From the NCBI GenBank assembly GCA_035473115.1, contig DATION010000004.1, positions 33,126 to 97,125 of the forward strand: a stretch of 64,000 nucleotides of DNA. The letters run 5' to 3'. The notes beneath the pieces were generated by a model. The model did not search any database and was not told where the DNA came from. It worked only from the letters and a program-made list of their open reading frames with translations. The stretch's first letter is position 1. Each line of letters starts with the position of its first letter. The DNA comes from Candidatus Udaeobacter sp. (lineage in GTDB: Bacteria > Patescibacteriota > Patescibacteriia > Magasanikbacterales > GWA2-37-8). The translations under genes and the position numbers were made by a program. Of this stretch, positions 21,130 to 46,454 are shown in pieces.

Positions 21130-21135
21130 ATATTA

Positions 21136-23640: not shown

Positions 23641-23672
23641 AAAAGTCAAGGATACATCCTCGACTTTTTTGT
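23641..23672. terminator. hairpin terminator after the oxidoreductase gene (overlaps the -35 region of the islet-1 promoter)
   Basis: AAAAAAGTCAAGGATACATCCTCGACTTTTTT. An imperfect 9-bp stem flanked by an A-run and a T-run. Confidence 0.5.
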
Positions 23673-23681
23673 TTAGCAAAA

Positions 23682-25533: not shown

Positions 25534-25685
25534 AAGCGAAATGAGTGAATAAAATATTTAGCTTGCTAGAATATTTTTGAGCGAATGAGTTTATATACTA
25601 ACGAAGCGAGTAAAAAGTATGTTTACATACTTTTTCGAGCAAGTACAGTAAATATGGAACATATATAGGCTTTAGCTTCTATATA

Positions 25686-26996: not shown

Positions 26997-27000
26997 TAAA

Positions 27001-27987
27001 TTAAAAATCAACCATTGTTTTTGCGCCTTCCAGTTCAAATCTAAACGACATCTCTCTCAAACCATTTTCTTTCATAGCTTCCCGTATTCCCTTTTTATCA
27101 CTCGGACAATAAAATAACAAAAATCCGCCGCCGCCAGCTCCCATAATCTTACCGCCCAGTGCGCCGCGTTCTTTAGCCAAAGAATAAAGCATATCTATCT
27201 TTGGATCAGACATTTTGGTTGACATTGTCTTTTTTACCCGCCAATGTTCATCCATCAAGCGGCCAAAATTATCCAGATTTCCCTGCTCAATAGAATTTTT
27301 AATTTCCAAACCAATATCTTTTATCTGCAGTAAAGATTTGGTCACATCGCTCTGCTCTGTTTTGGCGGCAGCGCTCTGTTCTCCCAAAATACTCATGGCA
27401 TCACGAGAAATACCGGTATAAAATATCATTAATTTGCTTTGCAATTCTTCTACTGTCTCACGCGCCACAGCAGCATTAGAAACCTTTACCGCGCCATTTT
27501 TATCTATATCCATTATAGTAAACCCGCCAAATGCAGCCAAATATTGATCTTGTTTGCCTACCGGCTTGTGCAACAAATCAATCTCAATATGACAAGCTTC
27601 TTCAGCTAATTCTTGCACGCCGGAACCTTTGCGCGTTAAAGTTTGCAGACCTTTTAAAAGACCAACCAAATACGAACCTGATGAACCCATGCCAGTGCCT
27701 TCGGGTACATCAGCCATAGATATAATTTCGATACTGTCTTTTATCCCATAATATTCCAAAGCGGCCTTGGCCAATTGATGCTGAACTTGAGCCACATTTT
27801 CGACAATCTCTGTTCGAGAATATTTAATACGCACTAAAGAATCTATGACCGGCCGATTAATGGCCACATACATATACTTATCAATGGCTGCGCTAAACAA
27901 GAAACCTCCATGTTGGCTATAAAAATTTGGCAGGTCAGTACCGCCGCCGCCAAGTGGAATTCTAAATGGTGTTCGGGTAAAAATCAT
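27001..27987 (-). CDS. hddA: GHMP-family sugar kinase, D-glycero-alpha-D-manno-heptose 7-phosphate kinase-like
   Basis: 328 aa. PFRIPLGGGGTDLP and GMGSSGS GHMP motifs. It sits next to the gmhA/gmhB/hddC operon. Confidence 0.65.
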   Translation of the reverse strand: MIFTRTPFRIPLGGGGTDLPNFYSQHGGFLFSAAIDKYMYVAINRPVIDSLVRIKYSRTEIVENVAQVQHQLAKAALEYYGIKDSIEIISMADVPEGTGMGSSGSYLVGLLKGLQTLTRKGSGVQELAEEACHIEIDLLHKPVGKQDQYLAAFGGFTIMDIDKNGAVKVSNAAVARETVEELQSKLMIFYTGISRDAMSILGEQSAAAKTEQSDVTKSLLQIKDIGLEIKNSIEQGNLDNFGRLMDEHWRVKKTMSTKMSDPKIDMLYSLAKERGALGGKIMGAGGGGFLLFYCPSDKKGIREAMKENGLREMSFRFELEGAKTMVDF

Positions 27988-27998
27988 ACGCTTTTACT

Positions 27999-28919
27999 TT
28001 ATAAAACATGCTTCTTAATATAATCTATTTGCTGCTTAATTCCTTCTGGCAAACTAGTTTTTAGTTGCCAGCCTAAATTTTGTAACTTACGGCAATCAGC
28101 CAAAGTAATTTCTGCTTCACCTGCCAAATTATCTTTATATATCGGATCAATACTCGAGCCGGTCAAATCTTTAATTATTTTATAAATTTCATTAACTGAA
28201 TAATTTTCTCCGGATCCGATATTGTACACTTGATTATTGGCGCTATCTTCTTTCATCAGTAATACATGCGCGTCATTAATATCATCAATATAAACAAAAT
28301 CTCGTCTTTTTTCTCCAGTTCCATAGATTACCGGCTGCTCGCCGCGCAATAAATTAATAATGAAAGCCGACATTAGCGGCGGAATAGTGCGCCGATAATC
28401 TTGCCGCGGACCATAAACATTAAAATAACGCACACCGATGCTGTCTAAGTTATAAAACTCTTTATAAGCTTTGGCAAAATAATGCCCGGCCACTTTGCTC
28501 ATGGCATAAAAACTATGCGGGTCCACGACAGTTTCCGGAGTGGGAAATTTGTCCGTACCTTCATAGACAGCCGAGCTTTCGGCATAGATAACTTTTTTTA
28601 CACCAGCTTTGGCACTAGCTGCAAACACATTCACCGTGCCGGTTACATTTATATCAGAAGTTTCTAAAGGGTCTTTTTGGCAATCACTGATGCAATTTTT
28701 GGCAGCCAAATGAAAAACATACTCCACATCTTTAAATAACGGATGAATTTCTTTTGAACGGATATCTATTTTATGAAAAAGAACTCCTTCCGGTATTTGC
28801 TCTTTGACACCATAAGAAAGGTCATCTATGCCGATAACTTCATGGCCTTCGGCAAGCAACCTAACTGCCAAATTACTGCCGATAAAACCGGCAACTCCGG
28901 TAACAAGAATTTTAGCCAT
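27999..28919 (-). CDS. NAD-dependent nucleotide-sugar epimerase/dehydratase (SDR)
   Basis: MAKILVTGVAGFIGSNLAVRLL and YAMSK (YxxxK). Length is 306 aa. Confidence 0.7.
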   Translation of the reverse strand: MAKILVTGVAGFIGSNLAVRLLAEGHEVIGIDDLSYGVKEQIPEGVLFHKIDIRSKEIHPLFKDVEYVFHLAAKNCISDCQKDPLETSDINVTGTVNVFAASAKAGVKKVIYAESSAVYEGTDKFPTPETVVDPHSFYAMSKVAGHYFAKAYKEFYNLDSIGVRYFNVYGPRQDYRRTIPPLMSAFIINLLRGEQPVIYGTGEKRRDFVYIDDINDAHVLLMKEDSANNQVYNIGSGENYSVNEIYKIIKDLTGSSIDPIYKDNLAGEAEITLADCRKLQNLGWQLKTSLPEGIKQQIDYIKKHVL

Positions 28920-33124: not shown

Positions 33125-33126
33125 AT

Positions 33127-34611
33127 TTATTCCAGCTTAAAATCCATTTTCCTTAATTTATAAAAAATATACAGCGGGTATGCCCAAACTAGCATCACAA
33201 ATAGCTGCTCAAACCATAACTCACCCACAGCATCGGTACCGCGAACATACCAATTGAAAAGCCATAGCGGATAAAAAACTAACGGTGATAAACTAAGCCA
33301 CACTAAAGCTCGGCCTAACAAAATATTGCGAGAACGTTCGTACACCAAAATTCCCAATGGAATTAACCAAGCCACATACCATGGCCAAAAAGATTTTTGC
33401 CAAAGAGATAAATATAGAAATAAGCCAAAAAATATCATCTGCAGATAACTTTCTGCAGTCATAGTATATTTTTTTAGCAGTATTAAAACTATTTTTTTTA
33501 GATATGGCCAAAATAAATAAATCATTAGTGCCAGCAAACCTCCTTGGACCAAACGGGTCAAAAACCAATGCGCCCTATCATGGAGCAACCAAACAAACAG
33601 CGGTTTTAGAGAATAATAAATAACAGCAAACACGCTGTCCGCCGCCCATTTTGACTGCATAGCAATCAGATCAAATACTTTGAATCCCTGCCACAAGCCA
33701 TGCCAATAAAATATAGTTATTGCAATACTAAGCAAACTGCCAACCAAAGCCTGGCTTAACTGTTTTTTCCAAGTAAGAACTGTAGTTTCTTGCCACCACC
33801 AAACCACAAAAAATGGCGCTACTAAAATAGGCAAAAACTTCACCCAAACACCAATTACCAGCAAAGGAATAACTAACCACCATTTACTGCGCCAGGCCGC
33901 CCAAATAGCCAAAAGTACGCACAGAAGCCAGGCAACATCAAAATGACCATTAACTAAAACTTCAAACAGTAATAATGGCTGCAGAATCCAAAAAGATAAA
34001 AATACCGAACGAGAAATTTTTATTTCTTGAATCTCCAGCAAACGATACACAACCCAGCCAACTAAAATTAAAATTGCGGTTAAAAATAATTTCCACAGCA
34101 CAATAAAAACCGCCGGATTATCAAAACTAATTTTATATAAATCTTTAAAAATAACAGCCATGATCGGCCCATAAGAAAACCCTACCACCGGTTCAACTCT
34201 AACCGGACTGACAAAATCACGCTTAAATATCCATTCGTCCACAAAAGGGTTCAAATTATTTTGCATGGCTTTGCCGGCAGAAAAATAATAGCTGGTATCA
34301 CTTGAGCCGAACGGAACTGTAATAATCGCCAAAAAAACAGAAATTCCGGCCAGTACCAGCCAAGATTTTTTTAATAATTCTGCTTGATGATTTTTCCATA
34401 AAAAATAACCGGAAACAATCAGACTAGCAATAAAAATAAATATCAAGCCAAATGATACTAACTTCAAGTTACCACTAAGCGGCGTGTGACAAAAAATCCA
34501 ACTGCTCATAAAAGCGCAGTTGATTTTAAAATAAGCAGAATAAAGCGCTGCTGAAAAAATTGCTACCAGCAGCCAACCGACTAAACCTGCATAGGATAAA
34601 AATTTGTTCAT
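33127..34611 (-). CDS. polytopic membrane protein, candidate GT-C glycosyltransferase or Wzy-like polymerase
   Basis: 494 aa with more than 12 TM helices and no soluble domain. It lies within the Wzx/ligase-containing cluster. Confidence 0.4.
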   Translation of the reverse strand: MNKFLSYAGLVGWLLVAIFSAALYSAYFKINCAFMSSWIFCHTPLSGNLKLVSFGLIFIFIASLIVSGYFLWKNHQAELLKKSWLVLAGISVFLAIITVPFGSSDTSYYFSAGKAMQNNLNPFVDEWIFKRDFVSPVRVEPVVGFSYGPIMAVIFKDLYKISFDNPAVFIVLWKLFLTAILILVGWVVYRLLEIQEIKISRSVFLSFWILQPLLLFEVLVNGHFDVAWLLCVLLAIWAAWRSKWWLVIPLLVIGVWVKFLPILVAPFFVVWWWQETTVLTWKKQLSQALVGSLLSIAITIFYWHGLWQGFKVFDLIAMQSKWAADSVFAVIYYSLKPLFVWLLHDRAHWFLTRLVQGGLLALMIYLFWPYLKKIVLILLKKYTMTAESYLQMIFFGLFLYLSLWQKSFWPWYVAWLIPLGILVYERSRNILLGRALVWLSLSPLVFYPLWLFNWYVRGTDAVGELWFEQLFVMLVWAYPLYIFYKLRKMDFKLE

Positions 34612-35958
34612 TTATTTGTATTGACCTAAAAATTCTTCAAAGCAAGCAACCATATATTCCATCATTTCTTTAGTCAAACCAGGATAAACACCAACCCAGA
34701 AGGTATTATTCATTACCAAATCGGCATTTTTAAGATCGCCAACCACTCGATAATCAATTTTATTATCTACAAAGTAAGGCTGCTTAATAATATTGCCGGC
34801 AAACAAATAACGAGTCGCTATCTGTTTGTCTTGCAAAAAACGCACCACCGTATCGCGATCAAACGGCGCGTCTTCTTGAACCGTCAACAGAAAACCAAAC
34901 CAGCTTGGCTCGGCATTATCCAGCCATTTTGGCAAAATAAAATAATCTTCAAACTTTTTTAAGCCATTATATAAAATATCAAAATTCTCTCGGCGTTTGG
35001 CCACAAAACTATCTAATTTATCCAACTGAGCCACGCCTAATGCAGCTTGAACATCGGTAGTTTTTAAATTATAGCCAATTTCCGAATAAATATATTTGTG
35101 ATCATAACCATATGGCAAATTTCCTAGCTGCCAACCAAAGCGCATACCGCAAGTATTATCACAACCGGATTTACACCAGCAATCTCGGCCCCAATCACGG
35201 AAAGAACGGATTATTTTTGCCAACATGCCGTCGTTGGTGAAAACAATTCCACCTTCACCTAAAGTAATATGGTGCGCCGGATAAAAACTGCAGGTAGCAA
35301 TATGGCCAAATGTGCCAGTATGCTTGCCATTATAAATTGAGCCCAAAGCATCACAGTTGTCTTCGATTAGCCACAGATTATGCTCTTTACAAATTGCGGC
35401 AATAGCCTCTAAATCAAATGGATTACCCAAAGTATGAGCCAAAAATATGGCTCTAGTTTTTGGAGAAATAGCTTGTTTAATCTGCTCAACATTGGCATTA
35501 TAATAACCCAAGTCAACATCCACAAAAACCGGTACCAATTTATTTTGAATAATCGGATTAACTGTGGTTGGAAAACTGGTCGCCACTGTAATTACTTCAT
35601 CGCCCGGATTTAATTTCTTGGCGCCTAATTTAGAAGAAGTAAGGGCTGTCATCGCCAGCAAATTGGCAGACGAACCCGAATTTACCAAAATCCCCTGTTT
35701 TACTCCCAGCCAATAAGCTAATTTGCTTTCAAATTCTTCAGTAAAATGACCTTCAGTCCACCAACCTTCCAAAACTGCATCTACCATACTGAGCATCTCT
35801 TTTTCATCAAAAACTTTTCCAGATACTGGCACAGATGACTGGCCGGGAACAAATGATTTTGCTGGAAATTTTTTGCTATATTCGGCTTGAATTTGCTGGC
35901 GCAAGGAGTCTTCCATACTTGATAATAAATGAAAATAATTAACTTTTACATTTACCAT
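34612..35958 (-). CDS. rfbH: CDP-4-keto-6-deoxy-D-glucose 3-dehydratase (E1, PLP/PMP-dependent, DegT/RfbH family)
   Basis: A long identity-like block to RfbH/DdhC: SFRDWGRDCWCKSGCDNTCGMRFGWQLGNLPYGYDHKYIYSEIGYNLKTTDVQAALG. The N-terminal VPVSGKVFDEKE and LVNSGSSANLLAMTALTS also match. The true start may be the Met 14 codons downstream. Confidence 0.85.
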   Translation of the reverse strand: MVNVKVNYFHLLSSMEDSLRQQIQAEYSKKFPAKSFVPGQSSVPVSGKVFDEKEMLSMVDAVLEGWWTEGHFTEEFESKLAYWLGVKQGILVNSGSSANLLAMTALTSSKLGAKKLNPGDEVITVATSFPTTVNPIIQNKLVPVFVDVDLGYYNANVEQIKQAISPKTRAIFLAHTLGNPFDLEAIAAICKEHNLWLIEDNCDALGSIYNGKHTGTFGHIATCSFYPAHHITLGEGGIVFTNDGMLAKIIRSFRDWGRDCWCKSGCDNTCGMRFGWQLGNLPYGYDHKYIYSEIGYNLKTTDVQAALGVAQLDKLDSFVAKRRENFDILYNGLKKFEDYFILPKWLDNAEPSWFGFLLTVQEDAPFDRDTVVRFLQDKQIATRYLFAGNIIKQPYFVDNKIDYRVVGDLKNADLVMNNTFWVGVYPGLTKEMMEYMVACFEEFLGQYK

Positions 35959-36117
35959 TTTACCAATTATTTTTTAAAAAAGCAACCTTTTATGTATAGT
36001 GAAAACCCCTATAAAATACAACACGCCCCGCCATTCTCATCCACGTTGGACTTGACAGCGGAGCGTTCTGACTCCTTGTTGAGACCCCATTTTCCATCAG
36101 GGGTAGAGCGCTATCTT

Positions 36118-36714
36118 TCAGCGCCAGGTGGAGAGCAAGGCCTTGTAGGCCTTGGGGATGATCAGGTCGCGGTGGAGATCCACCGTGACCTCGGGCAGGT
36201 GGTCCACGGGGAACCAGCCATGCCGATCGTCGACCCGCGGATCACTCTTGAGAGCGATCAGGAAGATCATGGAGTGCACCGTACCGCGGGCCTCCGACGT
36301 GATCTCCTTGCCGACCAGAGTGAATCCGGAGATCTCGGCTCCGAACTCCTTTCCGAGTCTGTTGGCGACATGCTGGTCCTGCTCGCCATGGCGGTAGAGC
36401 GAACCAGGCGCATGCCACTCGCCCGGATAGGCGGTATCATCTGGGGCTCGCCGCCGCAGATAGACCTCTGCAGTGCCACTCTTGCCCTTGCGGAAGAGCA
36501 TGGCCTCGAAGGCCGACGTGGGCCAAAGCCTCATCGTTGAGTCGCAAAACTTCGTTCCCACCGGCCTGGTGTTGTCGATCCGATCCATCTGACCAGCGAT
36601 CATCTCCCTGAAACCATCGCTGTTGGGATCCATCCGACCGAGCAAACCAGCGACCAGCGCCTTGAACTGATCGCTCTGGGGATTGAGATTCTCTGGGACT
36701 ACCAATCCGTTCAT
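36118..36714 (-). CDS. hypothetical protein on a second high-GC islet (weak Nudix-like GxWxxPG...GE...R...E.G pattern)
   Basis: 198 aa. GC is roughly 55% over about 36020-36720. A GGAGGG SD sits 7 nt before the ATG. PGEWHAPGSLYRHGEQDQHVANRLGKEFGAE loosely fits a Nudix box. Confidence 0.35.
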   Translation of the reverse strand: MNGLVVPENLNPQSDQFKALVAGLLGRMDPNSDGFREMIAGQMDRIDNTRPVGTKFCDSTMRLWPTSAFEAMLFRKGKSGTAEVYLRRRAPDDTAYPGEWHAPGSLYRHGEQDQHVANRLGKEFGAEISGFTLVGKEITSEARGTVHSMIFLIALKSDPRVDDRHGWFPVDHLPEVTVDLHRDLIIPKAYKALLSTWR

Positions 36715-36858
36715 TTTTCACCCTCCCGTTAATTGTTCTGGTTCGCTTCTCGACTCTTACTGGGAGTCAAAGAAGACATATTAAATTATCATAAATTAAC
36801 AAAAAAGTCAAGGTTTCCCCTGACTTTTTCGCTAATGATACGAATTATTATTTTAACT

Positions 36859-37815
36859 CTAAAAATTCACTCTTTCTTTTTCAATTACTAGCGGCCGCTC
36901 GCGCACCTGGGTATAAATTGCGCCAATATATTCGCCCAAAATACCGATAAAAAATAACTGGATAGAAGAAAATAAAAATATGCCGATAGTTACCGGTGCC
37001 AGTCCGGCTTCAAACCTATCCCAAAAAAGAAGTTTGTAAACTAAATAAACTATTCCGACTATAAAACTAATAACCGACATACCAAAACCAATAAAGCTGG
37101 CCAGACGCAAAGGAATCTTGGAATGGTTCACAAACCCCAACATGGCCAAATCATAAAGGGAATAAAAATTATTACTGGTCTTGCCCCTTTTTCTGGCCGG
37201 CTGCACATAACTAATCTCGGCCCGATTAAAACCGACTTCGGTAATTAGGCCGCGGAAATATGGATACGGGTCTTTCAACGTTCGCAATACAGCAATAAAC
37301 TTTTGATCATATAGTCCAAAACCGGTAAAATTTTTAATCTGTTCAATATCTGATAATTTTTTCATCAGATCGTAATAAACTTTGCGAATCGCAAACATTA
37401 AAGGATTTTCTTCACTCTGATTTTTTACTCCCACCACAATCGATTTTCCCTCTTCCCATTTTTGCAAAAATTCTTTGATCATTACTGGCGGATCCTGCAA
37501 ATCCGACGCCATCAGTATCACCGCGTCGCCATAGGCTTGCTGCAGGGCATAATATGGCGAACGAATATGGCCAAAATTTTTAATGTTAACGATAATTTTT
37601 ACATTGTAGTCGGCTGCGGCTAGTTTTTTTAAAATTTCCACCGTATTATCTTGCGAAGCATTATCAATAAAAATATGTTCATAACGATACTGCGGCAAGT
37701 CAGCAAAAACTGCCTTTACTTGTTTATAAAGTTCTTCCACGTTTAATTCTTCGTTATAGCAAGGAGTAACAACGCTGATTAGTTTTTTATCTGACATATA
37801 AATTTTAGTTGTCAT
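36859..37815 (-). CDS. family 2 glycosyltransferase, GtrB/ArnC-like polyprenyl-phosphate sugar transferase with C-terminal TM helices
   Basis: LISVVTPCYNEELNVEELYKQV...IFIDNASQDNT...MASDLQDP followed by two C-terminal TM segments. Length is 318 aa. Confidence 0.7.
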   Translation of the reverse strand: MTTKIYMSDKKLISVVTPCYNEELNVEELYKQVKAVFADLPQYRYEHIFIDNASQDNTVEILKKLAAADYNVKIIVNIKNFGHIRSPYYALQQAYGDAVILMASDLQDPPVMIKEFLQKWEEGKSIVVGVKNQSEENPLMFAIRKVYYDLMKKLSDIEQIKNFTGFGLYDQKFIAVLRTLKDPYPYFRGLITEVGFNRAEISYVQPARKRGKTSNNFYSLYDLAMLGFVNHSKIPLRLASFIGFGMSVISFIVGIVYLVYKLLFWDRFEAGLAPVTIGIFLFSSIQLFFIGILGEYIGAIYTQVRERPLVIEKERVNF

Positions 37816-37916
37816 CTCGAGCGTAGTCGAGAGATCCCTTATACTTGGTTATAGCAAATATTACGTTTAAGGGATTCCTCCACTCGCCTTAAGGCTCGGT
37901 CGGAATGACGGTTTAG

Positions 37917-38795
37917 TTATTCTTCAATTAAATTCTTCTGATCTAAACTTGGCAAAACTTGCTTATAGTATGTTACTAATTTATCAATAGCTATGTCAAT
38001 TGACGTATAGGCAAAACCAGGAATTATATTCTGTAAGCGAGAGATATCGCAAGAATATTCTTTGGCCAAACCGCTATTAGCAATTAAAACCGGTACTTTA
38101 TAACCAATTTTTTCTAAAACCTTATCAGCTATAGTTTGCAGATCAATTGCTTCTCCCCGACCAATATTAATAAAAATTTCTTTTGGCTGCTGTAAAATAA
38201 TTTTTTCTAAAATTTGCACAAAATCATCTATAAACAGATAATCAAAATTTACATTCTGCCGCATCGTAATCGGTTTATGAAGCAAGGCCCGGCAAATAGC
38301 GTTGGAAATAAATCTAATTTCATAGTCTTCGTACTTACCAAAAACGGCAAACAACCGCAGATGGGTAATATAATCTACTTTGGCCGCATATTGGGCGCAA
38401 ACATATTTATACAATCCATATTCATCTTTGGGAACATGCTTATCAAAATCAGTTTCTTTCACATTTACTAACGACTCTTGTTTATCATATTCCGCTCCGG
38501 AACCAAGTGTAATCATCCGTTTAAAAAATGGTTTGGCGCGAACCAAATTAAAAAACATTTTTAAATTAATATGAGTAATACCAAAAACATGCTGCTGTTT
38601 GCGCGTACCGCCGATATTGGCTGCGTGCACCACAACATCTACGGGATTTTTCTGCAAAAAATTATATACCGCTTCACTGTCGGTCAAATCTAATTCAGAA
38701 TGGGTCGGTGCAATAATCTCAAACTTGTCTCCAAGCTGTTCTTTTATGTTGCGGCCGATAAATCCGTTACCGCCGGTTAAAAATATCTTAAGCAT
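37917..38795 (-). CDS. NAD(P)-dependent sugar epimerase/reductase (SDR; RfbS/YerF-like candidate reductase)
   Basis: MLKIFLTGGNGFIGRNIKEQL and YGLYK (YxxxK). Length is 292 aa. It lies immediately downstream of the ThDP enzyme. Confidence 0.55.
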   Translation of the reverse strand: MLKIFLTGGNGFIGRNIKEQLGDKFEIIAPTHSELDLTDSEAVYNFLQKNPVDVVVHAANIGGTRKQQHVFGITHINLKMFFNLVRAKPFFKRMITLGSGAEYDKQESLVNVKETDFDKHVPKDEYGLYKYVCAQYAAKVDYITHLRLFAVFGKYEDYEIRFISNAICRALLHKPITMRQNVNFDYLFIDDFVQILEKIILQQPKEIFINIGRGEAIDLQTIADKVLEKIGYKVPVLIANSGLAKEYSCDISRLQNIIPGFAYTSIDIAIDKLVTYYKQVLPSLDQKNLIEE

Positions 38796-38796
38796 A

Positions 38797-40611
38797 TTAT
38801 TGTTTCTTAGGCGGTGTTTTGACTATCATATTTTCGTTCAATTCTTCTTGACTCAAGAACGGAAACATATTTTCATAAGGATTAGAAATCATTTTACCAT
38901 CCGGACCTTTTTCCGAAGTTACTCGCGGAATCAGCAATTGCCATTCCGGAGTCATCACATCACAAATTACCGGACCGTCATAATCCAAAACTTCTTTTAT
39001 TTTAGCATCAACTTCATCTACCGAAGAAATGCGTACACCTTTGATGCCATATACTTCGGCCAACTTAACAGAATCCGGACACCACACGCCAGACGCCGGA
39101 CTTTCGCCAATCATCCGACCTTCAAAAAAATTACGCTGCGTATGACGCATTAACAAGTAACCGTTATTATTAAAGATAAAAATTTTTAACGGCAAATTAT
39201 TTATTTTGACTGTGGCGAGTTCCTGTAAATTCATCTGCAAACTGCCGTCGCCGGTAATAACAATTGTTGGCTTGCGGTCGGCGGCCACACAAGCGCCAAT
39301 GCCAGCTACCCAATAACCCATTGTCGAGATACCGCCGGTAGTCAGAAAACGCTGCTGTGGTTTTATTTTCCAAGTTTGAGCCGCCACATGAAAACAAGAT
39401 CCGGTATCAACCAAAATATTGGCACCAATTGGAGCCAACTCGCTTAACCGATCGGTAAAATAATAAGAATTGACCGGTTTTTCATCTTTATACGAAGGCA
39501 AAACAACCGGATATTTTTTCTTCCAATTCTGACAAATTGCCAGCCATTGCGGTCTTTCAATTTCTGATTTACTATCGGCATATTTAGCCAGTTCAACCAA
39601 AAATTGTTTGGCATCAGCCAAAACCGGCAAAACTATATTCAAATCCGGCTTATCTAATTCTTTCTGATCAATATCAATAATAATTTTTTCGGCATTACGG
39701 CCAAAATCTTTGACATTATAACCGGTAAGAGAAACTGTGAGACGAGAACCGATAGCAATAATCAAATCTGCGTTCTGCACGGCAAAATTAGCAGAGCGTT
39801 CACCGTAAGTTCCCGGCCGGCCAATATAAAGCGGATGATCACTAGTAATAATATCTAAACCTAAGCGAGACGTAAGCAGCGGAATTTTTATTTTTTTAAT
39901 AACATCTTCAAAAGCTGCTATACCACCCGACAACCTGACTCCTTGGCCAAAAATAAACAGGGGTCTTTCTGCTTTAGCGATCCGCTCATAAACAGCAACT
40001 ACTTTTTCTAATAACTCTTTTGATGGTTCAGCTGATTGTATTTCAGTTTTTTCGGTAAAAGAATAAGCATCAATAACTGATTGCGGCACTTCGCTGCGCT
40101 GCATATCAACCGGCACTTCAATCCAAACTGGACCGGGGCGACCGGTGGTAACTTGCCGCCAAACTTCGGCTAGATATTCACCGATCCGAGCCGGATCATC
40201 GACTGTGACAAAATATTTGGTTATGGGAGTAACCATCTTACGAATACTAATCCCCTGCACGCCAAATTGGCGAATATCGGTCTTTTCGGCATACTGCACT
40301 ATAGATAAATTTGATTGTCCGGAAATCACAATCATTGGTGATGAATCTACCCACGCGCCCACTACGCCATTTAAAGCGTTAACTGCTCCCGGTCCGGCAG
40401 TGACCATAGCTATCGCCGGCTTATTGGCTACCCTCCCATAAGCCTCAGCAGCCATAGTGGCAGCTTGCTCATGCAACGGACAGATATAATGAAAATTTTT
40501 ATTCTTGGCAACTGCATCATTTAAAAACATGGCATGTCCGCCGGTAATAGTGAACACTTCGGTTACGCCGCGCTCGCCAAAATATTTGAAAATAAAATCT
40601 GCAACATTCAT
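38797..40611 (-). CDS. thiamine-diphosphate-dependent enzyme of the acetolactate synthase large-subunit family (YerE-like candidate sugar C-branching enzyme)
   Basis: 604 aa. N-terminal TPP-enzyme Pyr domain (VTEVFTITGGHAMFLNDA...VTAGPGAVNALNGVVGAW) and C-terminal ThDP motif GDGSLQMNLQELATV...NNNGY. Confidence 0.7.
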   Translation of the reverse strand: MNVADFIFKYFGERGVTEVFTITGGHAMFLNDAVAKNKNFHYICPLHEQAATMAAEAYGRVANKPAIAMVTAGPGAVNALNGVVGAWVDSSPMIVISGQSNLSIVQYAEKTDIRQFGVQGISIRKMVTPITKYFVTVDDPARIGEYLAEVWRQVTTGRPGPVWIEVPVDMQRSEVPQSVIDAYSFTEKTEIQSAEPSKELLEKVVAVYERIAKAERPLFIFGQGVRLSGGIAAFEDVIKKIKIPLLTSRLGLDIITSDHPLYIGRPGTYGERSANFAVQNADLIIAIGSRLTVSLTGYNVKDFGRNAEKIIIDIDQKELDKPDLNIVLPVLADAKQFLVELAKYADSKSEIERPQWLAICQNWKKKYPVVLPSYKDEKPVNSYYFTDRLSELAPIGANILVDTGSCFHVAAQTWKIKPQQRFLTTGGISTMGYWVAGIGACVAADRKPTIVITGDGSLQMNLQELATVKINNLPLKIFIFNNNGYLLMRHTQRNFFEGRMIGESPASGVWCPDSVKLAEVYGIKGVRISSVDEVDAKIKEVLDYDGPVICDVMTPEWQLLIPRVTSEKGPDGKMISNPYENMFPFLSQEELNENMIVKTPPKKQ

Positions 40612-40623
40612 ATAATGAAAAAG

Positions 40624-41643
40624 TTATGATTCTTTTTTAAATTTGGCTAATTCCATGGCTACTTCGACCACTATATCTTCCTGACCGCCGACCACTCGAC
40701 GCTTGCCTAATTCCATAAAAATATCCCGCGGATCAACCTTAAATCTTTCGGCCGCGCGCTTTACGGGCAAAGTAAAAACAGAAAACACTCCGGCCAAGCC
40801 GCTAGCAATAGTTATTGAATCAATTTCTAACGGTTTTTTAATAAAACCGGCCACAATTTGATCGCTCACATCCATTAAAATATTTAAGTTAACTGGAATC
40901 TGATAACCCATTTTTTTAAGCAGAGCTAATAACACTTCAATTGGACAATTACCGGCTCCTGGCCCAAAACCGCGCAAAGTTCCATCAATTATGCTGGCGC
41001 CTACTTCTAAAGCCATCCAAGTATGAGCCACAGCCATGCCTAAATTATTATGAGCATGAAAGCCAACTGGCACAGCTAAATTTTCTACTAAATAACTAAT
41101 TGTTTCTTTGACCAAAGCTGGAGTGGAAGCGCCGGCTGAATCCATAATAATAATGCCTTGCGCGCCATAACTGACCATTTTCTTGGCTTCTTCTAGCAAT
41201 CGTTCTTTGGTTGTCATGTGGTACATCATCAAAACTCCGTAAACTTCTTTGCCCGCTTTGGCTACATAGCTTATGTATTGCTGGGTAACATCAGCTTCCG
41301 TGCAGTGCGAAGCCACACAAACCAAATCAACGCCAAGTTCTATGGCTGGGGCAAGATCGTTTTTAATTGTACCAAAACCGGGCAATAAAAAAATACCTAA
41401 TTTGGCCTGTTTTAATTGTTTGCGGGCCGTTGCCAGTAATTCCAAATCTGGAGTGGCCGAAATACCAACCTGCAAAGATGAAGCGCCGATGCCATTGCCG
41501 TGTCCGACAATAACTACATATTCTCCGCCTTTATCAATAGCGCGGCAATATTTTTCCACCTGATCAACAGTTAATTGGTGCGATATCGCATGCTGACCAT
41601 CACGCAGAGTGGAATCAAAAACCATTAAATCTTTCATAAACAA
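40624..41643 (-). CDS. 4-hydroxy-2-oxovalerate aldolase-like (DmpG/BphI family, HMGL-like TIM barrel)
   Basis: DSTLRDGQHAISHQLTVDQV aligns to the DmpG DVTLRDGSHAIRHQYTLDDV. GFHAHNNLGMAVAHT metal-binding block. Length is 339 aa. Confidence 0.7.
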   Translation of the reverse strand: MFMKDLMVFDSTLRDGQHAISHQLTVDQVEKYCRAIDKGGEYVVIVGHGNGIGASSLQVGISATPDLELLATARKQLKQAKLGIFLLPGFGTIKNDLAPAIELGVDLVCVASHCTEADVTQQYISYVAKAGKEVYGVLMMYHMTTKERLLEEAKKMVSYGAQGIIIMDSAGASTPALVKETISYLVENLAVPVGFHAHNNLGMAVAHTWMALEVGASIIDGTLRGFGPGAGNCPIEVLLALLKKMGYQIPVNLNILMDVSDQIVAGFIKKPLEIDSITIASGLAGVFSVFTLPVKRAAERFKVDPRDIFMELGKRRVVGGQEDIVVEVAMELAKFKKES

Positions 41644-41648
41644 CCAAT

Positions 41649-42524
41649 TTATTTATTTGCAATTTTTTTCTTGGCATATTCTTCCGCTACTCGAATGGCA
41701 GCGCAAGTAATAATATCTAAATTACCGGCATAAGCGGGAAGAAAATCACCGCGACCAATAACTTCAATAGTAATAGTGACTTTTCCATTTTCAGCTATTG
41801 GGCCAATAGCCAAACGATAGCCAGGTACATACTGCTGGATAGCGGCAGCTACTTCATTTATTTTTTTGGTTAGAGCTTCAATGTTCGGCTCGGGAATAAG
41901 GGCATAAAGCGTATTATGCATTAAAATCGGCGGTTCAACCGGATTGAGAATCAAAATGGCTTTGGCTTCGGGCACACCAGAAAATTTTTTTAAAGCATCA
42001 GTGGTTGTCTGAATATATTCTTCCAGATTTGCTCTAGTACCGGAGCCGGCCGATTTGGAAGCAATACTGCCGACAACTTCAATATATTTTGTTTCCGGAT
42101 GCACGTCCATTATTGCTTTGGCAATTGGAATCAGCGTCTGACCACCGCAAGTTACCAGATTAACATTAGCAGCTTCCAAAGCTTGATCTAAATTTATGGC
42201 CGGCACGCACATCAGACCGATTCTGGAAGGAGTAAGATCAATGGTAAATTTTTTTAAATTTTTTAAAATCACCGCATGCTCGGCATGATAGGCCGCGCTG
42301 GTAGTATCAAAAACAATTTCACAGCAATTTGGATTGTCGGTTATAAACTTGATGGAGTCAAATGAAGTTGGAACGCCCAAATCCTTTGCTCGGCTAATTC
42401 CTTCGGAATCTTTGTTTCTGCCGGTAAAAATGCCGCACTCCAATATTTCGGAACGATTTACTTTATATAATAAATCACTGCCAATATTTCCAGTACCAAT
42501 TATACCTACCTTAACTTTAGTCAT
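41649..42524 (-). CDS. acetaldehyde dehydrogenase (acylating), DmpF/MhpF family
   Basis: MTKVKVGIIGTGNIGSDLLYKV, NLVTCGGQTLIP (catalytic Cys) and SKSAGSGTRANLEEY all match DmpF closely. Length is 291 aa. Confidence 0.8.
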   Translation of the reverse strand: MTKVKVGIIGTGNIGSDLLYKVNRSEILECGIFTGRNKDSEGISRAKDLGVPTSFDSIKFITDNPNCCEIVFDTTSAAYHAEHAVILKNLKKFTIDLTPSRIGLMCVPAINLDQALEAANVNLVTCGGQTLIPIAKAIMDVHPETKYIEVVGSIASKSAGSGTRANLEEYIQTTTDALKKFSGVPEAKAILILNPVEPPILMHNTLYALIPEPNIEALTKKINEVAAAIQQYVPGYRLAIGPIAENGKVTITIEVIGRGDFLPAYAGNLDIITCAAIRVAEEYAKKKIANK

Positions 42525-42545
42525 AGCTTATAACGGTAATCAATC

Positions 42546-43502
42546 TTATAAGATCTCTTTATACCAAGCCAAAGTCTCTAAAACTCCTCGCTTTAAACTA
42601 TACTTTGATTTCCAGCCAAGAATTTTTTCCGCTTTAGAAAAATTTAAACTCTGTTTTAGAATTTCATTTTTTTGATTGTTTACTATTTTATATTCAACTT
42701 TTTTACCGGCTATTTTAGAAACTTCTTTTATTAGTTCCAAAACTGAAAAATTAAATCCGGAACTAAAATTAAAGGCCTCGCCTTTGGCCTTGTCCATCTG
42801 CTCGGCCAAACAGATATATCCGTCCACCACATCTTTTACATAAACATAATCACGAGTAAACGTGCCGTCACTTCTTAGTTCTAAAACTTCATTCTTTATT
42901 ATCGCTTTCATGATACCCGGAATAATCCGATTAAAATTTAAATCTCCCGGACCAAAAATATTTCCGAAGCGAGAAATTGTTACCGGTAAATTATATGTTT
43001 TAGCATAAGTGAGTGCCAAAAGATCGGTGCAAGATTTGGAAACATCGTATGGATGGTCACCACGCAGCGGCTGAGTTTCTAACGCGGACAGACAATCTTT
43101 ACCATAGGCTTTGTCGCTTGAAGCGACAATAACTCCATTGATACGCGGCGACATTCTGGCAGCTTCCAAAATATGAAGCGTGCCCATAATGTTGGTGGCC
43201 AAAGTTTCATAAGGATTTACAAAAGCAGTCGCCACAATCGGCTGAGCGGCAATGTGAAATATAAAATTTACTTCGTATTTAGTAATAATATCGGCAATTC
43301 GTTCTTTATCCTTCAAATCACCGTTGGCCATTATTACTTTGCTGTCAAATTTATTTTTAAAAAAATAAGCTTGCGGATCACGGCTGCGCGACAAAACAAC
43401 GATACGTCCGGTATCCATTGATAAAAGACGTTCCACTAAATGAGAACCAACCAGTCCAGTGCCTCCGGTTACTAAGATATTTTTACCTTTAAGCTTAGAC
43501 AT
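42546..43502 (-). CDS. rfbG: CDP-glucose 4,6-dehydratase
   Basis: Start trimmed to the ATG at 43502, 10 nt after the rfbF stop. HIAAQPIV, SSDKAYG, HPYDVSKSCTDLL and RFGNIFGPGD blocks match RfbG/DdhB. Confidence 0.7.
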   Translation of the reverse strand: MSKLKGKNILVTGGTGLVGSHLVERLLSMDTGRIVVLSRSRDPQAYFFKNKFDSKVIMANGDLKDKERIADIITKYEVNFIFHIAAQPIVATAFVNPYETLATNIMGTLHILEAARMSPRINGVIVASSDKAYGKDCLSALETQPLRGDHPYDVSKSCTDLLALTYAKTYNLPVTISRFGNIFGPGDLNFNRIIPGIMKAIIKNEVLELRSDGTFTRDYVYVKDVVDGYICLAEQMDKAKGEAFNFSSGFNFSVLELIKEVSKIAGKKVEYKIVNNQKNEILKQSLNFSKAEKILGWKSKYSLKRGVLETLAWYKEIL

Positions 43503-43512
43503 GTAAAAAGAA

Positions 43513-44310
43513 TTAGTTTTCCCAAATTTTCCAAAATGGATCTTTCTGCCAATGCTCATTCATCTCTTCAACTTCTTTGTAAGTATCCATGCATTTCCAT
43601 TTTCCTTCATGCTTATAGACAGACAACTCGCCTTTTTCGGCCAGTGGGGCAAAAATTGATTCTACCATTGAATCCGGAGTCAGCAGATCCAAAGCTTCCG
43701 GTTTTAATACCATAAAGCCGCCATTGATAAAATCATTGGCTTGCTCTTCGTATCTGTTTTGGTTAGTTACTTTGTGCTGAAAAAAATCAACGGCTTTTTT
43801 GGTATTATGATCTATATTTAAAAAGCCAAAACGATGGGTTGGCCGCACAGCTGTAATGGTAGCGGCAGTATTTTGCTGTTTATGAAAATCAACCAGCTCT
43901 TTAACATTGATATCGGCCACGCCGTCCCCGTAAGTTATCATGAAATCTTCGTTGGGATTTAAATATTGCTTTAAGCGGCGAATGCGCTCGCCGGTTAAAC
44001 TATTTAAGCCGGTTTCCGCAAAAGTTATTTTAAAATCATCGCAATCATTGTTATGAAAAACTAAGCCATTATCTTTGGTACTCAAAGTAAAATCATTCAG
44101 CAGACTGCGCCAATTCAAAAAATATTCTTTGATCATGTTGCCTTTATAACCAAGAGCCAAAATAAAATCATTGTAGCCATAATGGGCATATATCTTCATG
44201 ATATGCCATAGAATTGGCTTGCCGCCAACTTCTACCAATGGTTTTGGTTTAAATTCAGTCTCTTCTTTCATGCGGGTACCAGTGCCGCCGCAGAGAATTA
44301 TTGTCTTCAT
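43513..44310 (-). CDS. rfbF: glucose-1-phosphate cytidylyltransferase
   Basis: MKTIILCGGTGTRMKEETEFKPKPLVEVGGKPILWHIMKIYAHYG...ITYGDGVADIN is a near-canonical RfbF/DdhA sequence. Length is 265 aa. Confidence 0.85.
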   Translation of the reverse strand: MKTIILCGGTGTRMKEETEFKPKPLVEVGGKPILWHIMKIYAHYGYNDFILALGYKGNMIKEYFLNWRSLLNDFTLSTKDNGLVFHNNDCDDFKITFAETGLNSLTGERIRRLKQYLNPNEDFMITYGDGVADINVKELVDFHKQQNTAATITAVRPTHRFGFLNIDHNTKKAVDFFQHKVTNQNRYEEQANDFINGGFMVLKPEALDLLTPDSMVESIFAPLAEKGELSVYKHEGKWKCMDTYKEVEEMNEHWQKDPFWKIWEN

Positions 44311-44399: not shown

Positions 44400-46454
44400 T
44401 TATTTTTTCTTAGTCTTAACCGGAGTAGTTGTAGGCACAGGAGCTAAAATTTGAGCTACCGTTGATGCTTCTGTCGGATTAAATGTAACTCCGTTTTTGG
44501 CTGCTAAATCAATAACTTCTTTTGCCTTATCCATCTGGCCTACCAATCTGTATACATAAGCCAAACGCCAATAGCTTTCACTGACATTAGGATCATCTTC
44601 AATTGTCTGCTTAAGGTATTTTACCGAATCATCAGTTCTGCCAATCTGCAAATAAAAATTTGCCAGATTATAAATAACCTGCTGACGCTTTGGTGAATAT
44701 TTTAAGGCGATTTCTAAATTATCACCATATTGAGCGACATACTTTAGATCATTTGTTAGAGAATAACCAACCTGACTCAATTGGCTTAAAGTCAGATAAT
44801 TTCTGATATCATAGGGATGCAAAACAATATTGGCTTGTAAAGCTTCTTGGGCTATGTTAAACATTTCCAAATTTTTATCTTTGCCAAGCTTGTTATCACT
44901 GCTGCTCAATACCTGAGCAACTGTGCGTGCCAGATCGCTGCGAATATCATCTATATGAGGCGAGTTAAAGGCCAAGGCTGTTTTCATTAAATCTATTCCT
45001 GTTAAAGGCTGGTAGCTTAGGTACTTGAGAGCATCCAAGGTTTTCATATTGGCTCTGGCAGGCTGGATATCAAAAATAAATACCAAAAATAAAATTACTA
45101 TTCCGGTGCTGACCATAGAGCCGGTGCCAATAGTTTTATTTGGATAAATAACCGGATTTTTAGCTGGCTCTGCCGGCAGCATTGATAAACTTATTATCAT
45201 TGCCAACCAAAACATAAAATATAAATATGAAGTTGGATTCTCAAAAACTGTCACGCTCTGTACAAGATGAGCCGCCAAGAAAGAAACTCCAATTACCACA
45301 ATATGCAAATCTAAAGATCTCTTTTTTCTGGCAACTACTAAAACAGCTACAGCCGCTCCGAAAATAGAAAGATAACTGATCAAACCAACCGCACCCTGTA
45401 CGGCCAAAGTGTTTACAATAATATTGTGAGCATTATCAAACCAAGTTTCTCCATAACCAAACTCCAAAGACTTTGGTTGATAATATTTATTAAAGGCATA
45501 AAAGAAGTTATTTGGACCCCAGCCAAATAACGGCTTCTCTTTCCAACTCTCTACAGCCGCTTTCCAAGCCAGCCAACGAGCACTGTTTTGGATACTGGCA
45601 AAAGAAGTATTTATTGTACGATTAACAGCCGGGATTTTTTGCACAAAACTTGTTTGTCTAAAAGCATAAAGCAAAGCAATGACTGCCACGCCAAATATTG
45701 CTAGACCCAAAAGAACTTTTCTGGTCTTAGGGAAGTCGCGCAAAACAAATATATATCCAACTACCGCTACAGCCATACCCACGATCAAACCGAGCATGGA
45801 TCCGCGCGTACCACTGAAAAACATGCCTAATATCGCCAGCGCTCCCGCAGCCGCTTCTATATATTTCCAATTTTTATTTTTCTCTTTAATAAAAAGCAGG
45901 AAGGAAACAAAAGTCAAAAATAAACCATAACCACCGACATAGATGGAATTTCCTAAAGTGCTGGCAACACGGTCACTGCCGCCGTTTAATAACATATCCG
46001 GTTTAAAAATCTGTAAAACACCGACAATCATAACGAGCGAGCCGGCAGATAAAAATATTTTTAAAGCTTTATTCCAATCTGTCCAATCTTTAAGAACAGC
46101 ACTGCAGATAAAATAATAGGCAATATAATGAAAAATTGTAAAAAGACCCAACATTCTTTCGTGGTTATCCCAAAAACTGTGGTAAGGATCAACGCCGACA
46201 AAAGTAGAAATGGCAAAGCTAATTAAAAAAACAAATAAAGCGATATTTAGGGCTGAAAACTTTGGTTTGAACTCCTGCCAATTGATGCACAATAATAAAA
46301 TATAACAACCGATCATTAAAGTGACTAGCGATCGGAAAAGCAATATTTTAGGGACGATAAAAGGAAAAATAAAAGAAGCTGGCAGTACTACCAAAGGAAC
46401 AAAAAAAGTGGCATAAATCAAAAACTTGGTTGCTTTCAAAATAGTCTGTTTCAT
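44400..46454 (-). CDS. O-antigen ligase/PglL-like (Wzy_C) polytopic membrane protein with C-terminal TPR repeats
   Basis: 684 aa with about 12 TM helices, including an FFSGTRGSMLGLIVG segment. The C-terminal ~200 aa has TPR-like repeats (YYLQIGRTDDSVKYLKQTIEDDP...YWRLAYVYRLVGQMDKA). Confidence 0.6.
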   Translation of the reverse strand: MKQTILKATKFLIYATFFVPLVVLPASFIFPFIVPKILLFRSLVTLMIGCYILLLCINWQEFKPKFSALNIALFVFLISFAISTFVGVDPYHSFWDNHERMLGLFTIFHYIAYYFICSAVLKDWTDWNKALKIFLSAGSLVMIVGVLQIFKPDMLLNGGSDRVASTLGNSIYVGGYGLFLTFVSFLLFIKEKNKNWKYIEAAAGALAILGMFFSGTRGSMLGLIVGMAVAVVGYIFVLRDFPKTRKVLLGLAIFGVAVIALLYAFRQTSFVQKIPAVNRTINTSFASIQNSARWLAWKAAVESWKEKPLFGWGPNNFFYAFNKYYQPKSLEFGYGETWFDNAHNIIVNTLAVQGAVGLISYLSIFGAAVAVLVVARKKRSLDLHIVVIGVSFLAAHLVQSVTVFENPTSYLYFMFWLAMIISLSMLPAEPAKNPVIYPNKTIGTGSMVSTGIVILFLVFIFDIQPARANMKTLDALKYLSYQPLTGIDLMKTALAFNSPHIDDIRSDLARTVAQVLSSSDNKLGKDKNLEMFNIAQEALQANIVLHPYDIRNYLTLSQLSQVGYSLTNDLKYVAQYGDNLEIALKYSPKRQQVIYNLANFYLQIGRTDDSVKYLKQTIEDDPNVSESYWRLAYVYRLVGQMDKAKEVIDLAAKNGVTFNPTEASTVAQILAPVPTTTPVKTKKK

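Follow-up and report, generated by a model that had tools for sequence, protein, structure and literature searches.

In the plant pathogen Pectobacterium atrosepticum SCRI1043, the genes for the YerE-like enzyme ErwE and the reductase ErwF adjoin those for the BphI-like ErwI, the BphJ-like ErwJ, and the enzymes that make cytidine diphosphate (CDP)-4-keto-3,6-dideoxyglucose (Steitz et al. 2022, PMC9306805). In the route proposed for the sugar erwiniose, ErwJ converts acetyl-CoA to acetaldehyde, ErwI combines the acetaldehyde with pyruvate to give 4-hydroxy-2-oxopentanoate, ErwE adds this donor to the keto sugar, and ErwF reduces the product (PMC9306805); a 2025 review restates the route (PMC12247030). 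In vitro, ErwE accepts 4-hydroxy-2-oxo-butanoate, -pentanoate, and -hexanoate, rejects pyruvate, and prefers the (R)-donor (PMC9306805). An in silico survey from 2024, taken here at second hand as cited in PMC12247030, reportedly found more than 200 YerE-like clusters. Here we describe a locus of similar design in a 64,000-nucleotide stretch of DNA (positions 33,126 to 97,125 of the forward strand of contig DATION010000004.1, assembly GCA_035473115.1), which as a whole we call the window. Between 33.1 and 46.5 kb, the minus strand of the window carries a block of CDP-sugar genes together with genes for a DmpF-like acylating dehydrogenase, a DmpG-like aldolase, a thiamine diphosphate (ThDP)-dependent carboligase, a reductase, and two glycosyltransferases, one of them of the GT-C type, as well as a small Nudix-like open reading frame (ORF) rich in guanine and cytosine (GC).

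We propose, with a probability of roughly three in four, that this block encodes an erwiniose-type pathway, i.e., one for a CDP-activated 3,6-dideoxyhexose with a four-carbon (1,3-dihydroxybutyl) branch at C-4. All genes that an earlier note on this DNA had named are present at their coordinates on the minus strand (Table 1), and their families were confirmed by Pfam and NCBIfam profile scans of the window ORFs, judged against the NCBIfam cutoffs. The donor supply that the note had suggested, from acetyl-CoA through acetaldehyde and 4-hydroxy-2-oxovalerate to a C4 branch, is well supported and very likely correct, and it turns out to be nearly identical to the route of PMC9306805. Its statement that DmpF and DmpG occur in no described nucleotide-sugar pathway did not survive, as ErwJ and ErwI of erwiniose had been published in 2022 (PMC9306805). 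Nor did its label of a candidate novel pathway, because the arrangement is already assigned to a known sugar, an outcome that the note itself had listed as speaking against novelty. What is new here is an example, in an uncultured bacterium, of a known and widespread erwiniose-type design, and not a new pathway.

The DmpF-DmpG-ThDP triad is conserved across bacterial phyla

The ThDP protein was aligned with diverse homologues (alignment A1), and one genome per GTDB species was then scanned. All survey figures rest on the best 80 of 205 confirmed relatives (56 to 89% identity), and neighboring genes in their loci were located by tblastn with the window proteins. In this gene-neighborhood survey, which the earlier note had proposed, adjacency was scored wherever a locus extended 2.1 kb or more upstream; in 68 of 68 such loci, the DmpF-DmpG pair directly precedes the ThDP gene, with strand and gene order unchanged. 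Genes for CDP-sugars accompany the triad. Among the 41 loci with full 10-kb flanks, RfbH is found within 10 kb in 39, an RfbG-like short-chain dehydrogenase/reductase (SDR) in 39, RfbF in 33, and a family 2 glycosyltransferase (GT2) in 26. Because the adjacency is kept in every scored locus, we conclude that the three genes are functionally linked; the survey strongly supports a conserved functional module that is neither a chance juxtaposition nor a stray catabolic operon. We regard the DmpF-DmpG-ThDP triad as a genomic marker by which long-branched sugars can be reliably recognized in uncultured bacteria, among them the genome-reduced members of the candidate phyla radiation (CPR).

The surveyed loci come from Patescibacteria (Parcubacteria, Magasanikbacteria, Falkowbacteria, Ryanbacteria, and Saccharibacteria), Bacillota (Lachnospiraceae, Roseburia, Clostridium gasigenes DSM 12272, and Lachnotalea glycerini DSM 28816), Elusimicrobiota, Omnitrophota, Planctomycetota, Lentisphaerae, Verrucomicrobiota, Spirochaetia, Alphaproteobacteria, Melainabacteria, and others. 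Pectobacterium is absent among the best 80 of the 205 relatives. Several third-party-annotation (TPA) metagenome-assembled genomes (MAGs) among the survey loci carry the label "uncultured Gammaproteobacteria," which looks doubtful. The cultured carriers, Clostridium gasigenes and Lachnotalea glycerini, offer a direct route to the sugar itself.

Additional families recur in these loci, namely, GtrA-like proteins, a second SDR family, NeuB-like proteins, FkbM methyltransferases, a split transketolase, aminotransferases with GNAT proteins, an MBL-fold protein, and RmlC-like proteins. The split transketolase pair is found in six loci (L009, L010, L013, L023, L053, and L080). About six loci have both an aminotransferase and a GNAT gene after the ThDP gene; just after it, a class I/II aminotransferase, a GNAT-like acetyltransferase, or both are encoded in L011, L013, L024, L036, L041, L063, and L070. 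Such loci imply amino or N-acetylamino variants of the C4 branch.

Taken one by one, the proteins of the triad could be read differently. Both the DmpF and the DmpG protein exceed the NCBIfam equivalog cutoffs for the catabolic enzymes, and the top NCBIfam matches of the ThDP protein are acetolactate synthases, as would be expected if an unrelated meta-cleavage module, or an acetolactate synthase gene, had come to lie in a glycan cluster by chance. We consider this extremely improbable. Genes for a hydratase, a decarboxylase, or a ring-cleavage enzyme are absent from the window, as are ilvN and ilvC; the pair is set into its run with gaps of 5 to 21 nt, and no strong terminator-like hairpin occurs before the one that follows the GT2 gene. 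The Leu and Tyr residues that determine stereochemistry in the catabolic enzymes are replaced, and the synteny with CDP-sugar genes is kept across so many phyla that the survey effectively refutes this explanation.

The probable branching enzyme resembles YerE-like carboligases

The ThDP protein was also considered, and rejected, as an ordinary acetolactate synthase. All equivalog models of acetohydroxyacid synthase (AHAS) score below their cutoffs (TIGR00118, 360.6 bits versus 538), and a tblastn search of plasmids with this protein, which served as a contrast set, retrieved only true IlvB at 30 to 33% identity. Its best solved structure is that of JanthE (8rph, 387 bits), followed by PpYerE (5ahk, 250 bits), with AHAS structures at 237 bits or less. 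The catalytic Glu lies in an HEQ motif (residues 47 to 49) that is invariant in alignment A1, and a canonical GDG-x24-NN motif starts at residue 454. The exact protein is also encoded on a Logan contig from SRR9656165. The adjacent SDR (37917 to 38795) is weakly similar to the structures of RmlD and GDP-fucose synthase. Its homologues are found in 28 related loci, and in 13 more loci the same slot is taken by a different SDR family.

YerE and several YerE-like enzymes (JanthE and MyGE) accept pyruvate, and the ThDP enzyme of the window might likewise use pyruvate to install a yersiniose-type C2 branch, with DmpF and DmpG acting as accessory enzymes (acetaldehyde scavenging or supply) or modifying the attached branch; an action of the pair on a sugar-linked intermediate, the alternative raised in the earlier note, is formally possible. 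We judge this to be quite unlikely. The invariable adjacency of the pair indicates an obligatory metabolic link, and DmpG acts on a free aldehyde together with pyruvate, so that a tertiary-alcohol sugar does not suit its chemistry. Moreover, ErwE, the one characterized enzyme in such a context, rejects pyruvate, and its authors thereby excluded an aldol extension after branching (PMC9306805).

Sugar-linked aldolases share a signature of Phe or Tyr followed by Phe

The DmpF-type dehydrogenase matches the structures 7z3s, 8ih7_B, 4lrs_B, 4jn6_B, and 1nvm_B, and its nucleophile, Cys126 in the motif TCGGQ, is kept in 70 of 71 homologues. The aldolase retains the equivalents of DmpG residues R17, D18, H21, H200, and H202. 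We compared the residues of 75 sugar-linked aldolases with those of four catabolic crystal structures, all of which have Leu at position 88 and Tyr at position 291 (DmpG numbering). The window aldolase has Phe at both positions. Position 291 is Phe in all 75 sugar-linked aldolases, and position 88 is Phe or Tyr in all 73 that have a residue there. In BphI, the corresponding Leu87 and Tyr290 flank C4 of the substrate; the Y290F substitution abolishes 4S control, and the double variants L87W/Y290F and L87N/Y290F are 4R specific (PMC3962088). Because the combination of Phe or Tyr with Phe mirrors the engineered L87W/Y290F variant, the signature suggests, and no more than suggests, that the sugar-linked aldolase is naturally 4R selective. 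The predicted 4R product matches the preference of ErwE for the (R)-donor. The signature offers a testable structural reason for an R-configured donor and, for biocatalysis, points to natural pyruvate aldolases that would be 4R selective.

Among 1.84 billion representative proteins searched, Phe at the Tyr291 position is not confined to this clade; an H/F group and a group of approximately 700-aa proteins were also seen. The latter (representatives P0190 to P0300) is a large, distinct, apparently fused subfamily of about 650 to 710 aa, in which the N-terminal half is DmpG-like, Tyr replaces the catalytic His21, and His is found at the Tyr291 position.

The length of the donor may also depart from that of erwiniose. 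With the same architecture, propionyl- or butyryl-CoA would lead to 4-hydroxy-2-oxohexanoate or -heptanoate and hence to a C5 or C6 branch, making the product a relative of erwiniose. ErwE converts 4-hydroxy-2-oxohexanoate better than the pentanoate (76% versus 49%; PMC9306805), BphI and its variants take aldehydes up to C6 (PMC3962088), and nothing in the sequence fixes the acyl-CoA specificity. On the other hand, the position that limits aldehyde length in BphI, Leu89 (DmpG Leu90), is Leu in the window aldolase and Ile or Leu in all homologues, and not the small residue that opened BphI (PMC3962088), and acetyl-CoA is the ubiquitous substrate of the DmpF family. A longer branch is therefore unlikely in our view.

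The proposed acceptor sugar would require a genuine E1 whose E3 partner is missing from the locus

The genes for the acceptor, CDP-4-keto-3,6-dideoxyglucose, comprise a DdhA-like, a DdhB-like, and an E1 (DdhC) gene; DdhD (E3) was not found in the window. Compared with solved structures, the RfbG-like (DdhB-like) protein is ambiguous (GalE, 136 bits; RmlB, 125; CDP-glucose dehydratase 1rkx, 120). It contains the sequence ASSDKAYG, and we take the Asp-Lys pair of this Ser-Asp-Lys triplet to be a mark of CDP-glucose 4,6-dehydratases. RfbH matches the Yersinia E1 structures 3bcx and 3bb8 with 566 bits. Agnihotri et al. (2004) are said to have defined the hallmarks of E1 as a C-X57-C-X-C-X7-C [2Fe-2S] motif and a His in place of the Lys that binds pyridoxal 5'-phosphate (PLP). 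In RfbH, C202-X57-C260-X-C262-X7-C270 has exactly this spacing, and His replaces the PLP Lys in SFYPAHH. Judged by these residues, RfbH is a genuine E1.

The ddhD genes of Yersinia and Salmonella lie together with ddhABC, and every such cluster in Yersinia begins with ddhD (PMC5399914). The earlier note had seen no DdhD/E3 homologue in the window, and both domain and motif screens bore this out: no window ORF of at least 150 aa has a Fer2, FAD_binding_6, or NAD_binding_1 domain (Pfam scans and precomputed matches), and the plant-type ferredoxin Cys motif (CX4CX2C...C) is absent from all window ORFs of 100 aa or more. The motif screen gave the same negative for the 80 related loci. All-against-all clustering of the ORFs of the survey loci yielded no recurrent redox partner. 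Because neither E3 nor a recurrent redox partner is found at these loci, the electrons for E1 must come from something encoded outside the locus. Bona fide E1 genes apparently without E3 thus pose a concrete electron-donor question.

Glycosyltransferases next to the pathway suggest a carrier-lipid route

The GT2 protein has a GT-A domain, two C-terminal transmembrane (TM) helices, and a GILGEYIG tail. The GT-C-like protein has no match in our local Pfam scan despite its precomputed assignment to PF26314, and its gene is kept 3' of rfbH in the CPR relatives (41 to 43% identity). The gene for the Wzy_C protein lies directly upstream of rfbF also in the closest CPR loci (L002 to L004, L007, L075, and L082). 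No homologue of the flippase GtrA is encoded in the window, and GtrA-like genes are present in 12 related loci. Because the GT2 is of the GtrB/ArnC type, the GT-C gene abuts rfbH, and GtrA-like genes recur in these 12 loci, the pairing of GT2 and GT-C suggests that the sugar may be delivered by way of a polyprenyl-phosphate carrier. We know of no description of such a polyprenyl-phosphate and GT-C route for any CDP-sugar or C-branched sugar.

A proposed pathway and the points that weigh against it

In the pathway that we propose, RfbF would make CDP-glucose, and the RfbG-like SDR would convert it to CDP-4-keto-6-deoxyglucose. E1 (RfbH), with a reductase encoded elsewhere, would then remove the 3-hydroxyl group to give CDP-4-keto-3,6-dideoxyglucose. 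In parallel, the DmpF-like enzyme, presumably working in the biosynthetic direction, would reduce acetyl-CoA with NAD(P)H to acetaldehyde and hand it to the DmpG-like aldolase, which would add pyruvate to form the predicted (4R)-4-hydroxy-2-oxopentanoate. The YerE/ErwE-like ThDP enzyme would decarboxylate this keto acid and add the resulting acyl-anion equivalent to the C-4 ketone, and the adjacent SDR would reduce the new side-chain ketone. Finally, the GtrB-like GT2 would probably load the sugar onto polyprenyl phosphate, from which, after flipping, the GT-C enzyme could transfer it to a surface acceptor. The protein families, catalytic residues, E1 hallmarks, and synteny on which this scheme draws were observed here, and the donor preference of ErwE and the logic of ErwI and ErwJ come from the literature. 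From these we infer the direction of the DmpF reaction, the 4R configuration, the chain length, the source of electrons, and the carrier lipid.

Several points weigh against an erwiniose-type pathway. The nearest characterized relative of the ThDP protein, JanthE, is only 35% identical to it, and the assignment to the erwiniose type is one of gene content and context. RfbF (289 versus 300 bits) and the RfbG-like protein (198 versus 278) fall below their NCBIfam cutoffs. The 3-deoxygenation step stands at the locus without its known partner E3, and the ferredoxin-motif screen gave no E3 candidate among ORFs of at least 200 aa in 82 loci either. Between rfbH and the other pathway genes stand a terminator-like hairpin and an inserted ORF. 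Other DmpG subgroups, too, have Phe at the Tyr291 position, and the signature is therefore not diagnostic by itself. To our knowledge, no GtrB-type enzyme uses a CDP-sugar. In addition, the aldehyde may be longer than acetaldehyde, as ErwE converts a C6 donor better than a C5 donor in vitro (PMC9306805).

A more extended conjecture joins three features that would set the module apart from the Pectobacterium and Yersinia paradigm, i.e., an E1 reduced by a general ferredoxin or flavodoxin system in place of a dedicated E3, a class of naturally 4R-selective aldolases, and a CDP-linked branched sugar passed on through polyprenyl phosphate and a GT-C enzyme, and places them together in CPR bacteria and many anaerobes. 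As a whole it is possible but doubtful, and we offer it tentatively.

Locus layout and transcription

All ORFs of at least 150 aa between positions of approximately 300 and 57,700 lie on the minus strand. Within the pathway block (Table 1), the RfbF and RfbG genes are separated by 10 nt (with the RfbG start taken at 43502), RfbG and DmpF by 21 nt, DmpF and DmpG by 5 or 11 nt depending on the choice of start codon, DmpG and the ThDP gene by 12 nt, the ThDP and SDR genes by 1 nt, and the SDR and GT2 genes by 101 nt; rfbH and the GT-C gene abut (0 nt). The tight rfbG-DmpF-DmpG-ThDP spacing described in the earlier note is thus confirmed.

Table 1. Features of the pathway block and the evidence for each
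Feature	Position	Strand	Evidence
Wzy_C + TPR membrane protein, O-antigen ligase/polymerase-like	44400..46454	-	Pfam Wzy_C 80 bits, TPR repeats, ~11 TM segments
RfbF/DdhA-like glucose-1-phosphate cytidylyltransferase	43513..44310	-	TIGR02623 288.8 bits full length, cutoff 300.25; NTP_transferase domain
RfbG/DdhB-like extended SDR, probable CDP-glucose 4,6-dehydratase	42546..43502	-	Best NCBIfam model TIGR02622 198 bits, cutoff 278
DmpF/BphJ/ErwJ-type acylating acetaldehyde dehydrogenase	41649..42524	-	TIGR03215 370 bits, cutoff 282; AcetDehyd-dimer
DmpG/BphI/ErwI-type class II pyruvate aldolase (4-hydroxy-2-oxovalerate aldolase)	40624..41643	-	TIGR03217 374 bits, cutoff 286; HMGL-like + DmpG_comm
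YerE/ErwE-like ThDP-dependent carboligase (branching enzyme)	38797..40611	-	TPP_enzyme N, M, C domains
Extended-SDR reductase, YerF/ErwF analogue (branch ketoreductase)	37917..38795	-	Epimerase + RmlD_sub_bind domains
GtrB/ArnC/PgfS-like GT2, polyprenyl-phosphate glycosyltransferase	36859..37815	-	Glycos_transf_2; PgfS 187 bits, ArnC 107 bits, both below cutoff
Terminator-like hairpin 3' of GT2 gene	36795..36836	-	19-bp stem, A-tract + U-tract
GC-rich (60.6%) divergent Nudix-like ORF, 198 aa	36118..36714	-	Composition; no Pfam match
RfbH/DdhC = E1, CDP-4-keto-6-deoxyglucose 3-dehydrase (pyridoxamine 5'-phosphate [PMP] and [2Fe-2S] dependent)	34612..35958	-	NF011936 704 bits, cutoff 423
Polytopic GT-C-like membrane glycosyltransferase (MptA_B family on record)	33127..34611	-	Precomputed Pfam PF26314; at least 8 TM segments

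Consensus scans for sigma-70 promoters and terminators within genes gave many weak matches, about as many as expected from shuffled sequence, and only two clear intergenic signals were used. One is a promoter-like TTGACA-17-TAGAAT at 46520 to 46492, 5' of the Wzy_C gene. The other is the hairpin after the GT2 stop codon (dG, −24.2 kcal/mol; z, −7.2), which none of 200 shuffled sequences equaled in folding. From rfbF to the end of the GT2 gene, the consensus scan found no terminator-like hairpin comparable to this one and only weak intragenic matches, among them an 11-of-12 promoter-like site inside rfbG; a separate operon for DmpF and DmpG, which the earlier note had considered as an objection, is thus not indicated. 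The Wzy_C gene through the GT2 gene probably form one transcription unit, with the Wzy_C gene first. Between GT2 and rfbH lies a segment of about 700 bp and 60.6% GC, which holds the Nudix-like ORF and its own weaker GC-rich hairpin (z, −2.3). Because the strong hairpin after GT2 and this GC-rich segment precede rfbH, the pathway genes, although co-directional, are probably transcribed in at least two transcripts. Of the single co-directional run that the earlier note had described, the common strand holds throughout, but a single transcript is improbable.

Host and surrounding glycan island

The genes of the cluster are syntenic with, and 43 to 91% identical to, those of the MAG "Parcubacteria group bacterium Gr01-1014_13"; only the GT-C gene (43%) and the Nudix-like ORF (56%) are below 74%, and the synteny reaches MurG (68%) and a transporter (81%). 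The GC content of the window is 37 to 40%. The exact match of the 198-aa Nudix-like protein is the hypothetical protein VLK22_02395, labeled Candidatus Udaeobacter sp. (Verrucomicrobiota). Because of the gene content, a GC content of approximately 38%, and the synteny with Gr01-1014_13, the host is probably a Parcubacteria-type (CPR) bacterium, and the Udaeobacter label a binning artifact or a mislabel. CPR organisms devote about 10 kb to the triad pathway despite their reduced genomes.

The Nudix-like ORF has a GC content of 0.606, compared with 0.37 to 0.38 in neighboring genes, with sharp steps in composition (window positions 36020 to 36720). A Pfam-NUDIX protein that occupies the corresponding position in a related CPR locus (L002) shares 42% identity with it. 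A search of 5.8 billion proteins returned 34 relatives, all from metagenomic contigs, and those with names are CPR-like; an origin from a high-GC donor was considered but is not supported, as no such donor is evident among the 34. The ORF has the appearance of an inserted cassette, and a role as a pathway enzyme is improbable. The slot between GT2 and rfbH in related CPR genomes holds one to three tandem Nudix-like paralogues (L002 and L004, 13817 to 14329; L003, 14465 to 16377; L075, 16094 to 17362), several of which are far above the local GC content (e.g., 0.60 versus 0.405 and 0.675 versus 0.384).

Positions 1 to 46454 form a co-directional surface-glycan island of about 45 kb, which is probably several percent of a CPR genome. 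The island contains at least 10 GT2 genes, two family 1 glycosyltransferases (GT1), PMT_2-type GT-C proteins, one of which is fused to a GT2 (747 aa, 9649 to 11892), Wzx, the Wzy_C-TPR protein, and two UDP-sugar dehydrogenases. A 763-aa fusion protein (15960 to 18251, minus strand) combines a sugar C-methyltransferase (Methyltransf_13, Methyltransf_14, and an S-adenosylmethionine [SAM] domain) with an extended-SDR epimerase/dehydratase and suggests that the island also encodes a second sugar pathway, one leading to a methyl branch; an exact-record look-up found no entry for this protein. Positions 19600 to 28000 (minus strand) encode a transaldolase/FSA, an NTP-transferase, a HAD phosphatase, a SIS isomerase, an inositol-monophosphatase-like protein, GFO/IDH/MocA oxidoreductases, a UDP-glucose/GDP-mannose dehydrogenase, and a GHMP kinase. 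This set resembles a nucleotide-activated heptose pathway (GmhA/HddA/GmhB/HddC-like), which is notable for a genome-reduced CPR organism.

Comparison with known systems

The GT2 of the locus has the architecture expected from the GtrA/GtrB/GtrC (ArnC/ArnT-like) system; the GT-C assignment comes from a precomputed PF26314 match and at least eight TM segments, and there is no GtrA in the window. The clusters for caryophyllose (Mycobacterium marinum MMAR_2331/2332), gastriose (M. gastri MygE/MygI/MygF), and the branched sugar of R. palustris CGA009 likewise combine an aldolase-made hydroxy-keto acid, a YerE-like enzyme, and a reductase. However, at least MMAR_2331 is reported to belong to the aldolase/citrate-lyase family and not to the DmpG type (PMC9306805), these clusters have no described acylating dehydrogenase partner, and their branches are longer (C6 to C7).

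With DmpFG, BphIJ, and HsaFG of aromatic and steroid catabolism (1nvm, 4lrs, 4jn6, and 8ih7), the window pair shares the two-protein architecture of an HMGL-like barrel with DmpG_comm and a Rossmann domain with AcetDehyd-dimer (about 40 to 45% identity), the metal ligands, the catalytic Arg and His, and the Cys nucleophile. It differs from them in its biosynthetic context and presumed direction, in the absence of meta-cleavage genes, and in having Phe/Phe in place of the 4S-determining Leu87 and Tyr290 (BphI numbering). JanthE of Janthinobacterium sp. HH01 (8rph, 8rpi, and 8rpj) and PpYerE (5ahk) are, like the window protein, YerE-like carboligases that accept ketones, and they are its closest solved structures. 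JanthE also takes 4-hydroxy-2-oxovalerate with benzaldehyde, but it has an unusual CDG ThDP motif, in contrast to the canonical GDG of the window protein.

In the yersiniose A pathway (Yersinia pseudotuberculosis DdhDABC, YerE, and YerF), as in the pathway proposed here, CDP-4-keto-3,6-dideoxyglucose from DdhA, DdhB, and DdhC homologues is the acceptor, a ThDP enzyme of the decarboxylase superfamily generates the C-4 tertiary alcohol, and a ketoreductase acts next; as expected of a yersiniose-type cluster, the locus here has a ThDP enzyme with the catalytic Glu and the GDG...NN motif beside rfbF, rfbG, and rfbH. YerE, however, adds a C2 branch from pyruvate without an aldolase-dehydrogenase partner, whereas DmpF and DmpG are invariably attached here, and the Yersinia ddhD (E3) is first in its cluster (PMC5399914) but was not found here.

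The closest counterpart is the erwiniose cluster of Pectobacterium, with which the comparison (ErwE, ErwF, ErwI, and ErwJ; WP_011093010 to WP_011093013) is one of gene content and context and not of measured orthology. The host here is an uncultured CPR/Parcubacteria-like bacterium, whereas Pectobacterium is a gammaproteobacterium. No E3 gene is nearby here, and rfbH is cut off from the rest by a terminator-like hairpin and a GC-rich Nudix-like cassette. Delivery here probably involves a GtrB-like GT2 and a GT-C enzyme, whereas Steitz et al. propose a glycosyltransferase for incorporation into the O-antigen. Common to both clusters are the ThDP carboligase, the adjacent NAD(P)H-dependent reductase, the DmpG- and DmpF-type pair, the genes for the CDP-keto sugar, and 4-hydroxy-2-oxopentanoate as the proposed donor of the branch.

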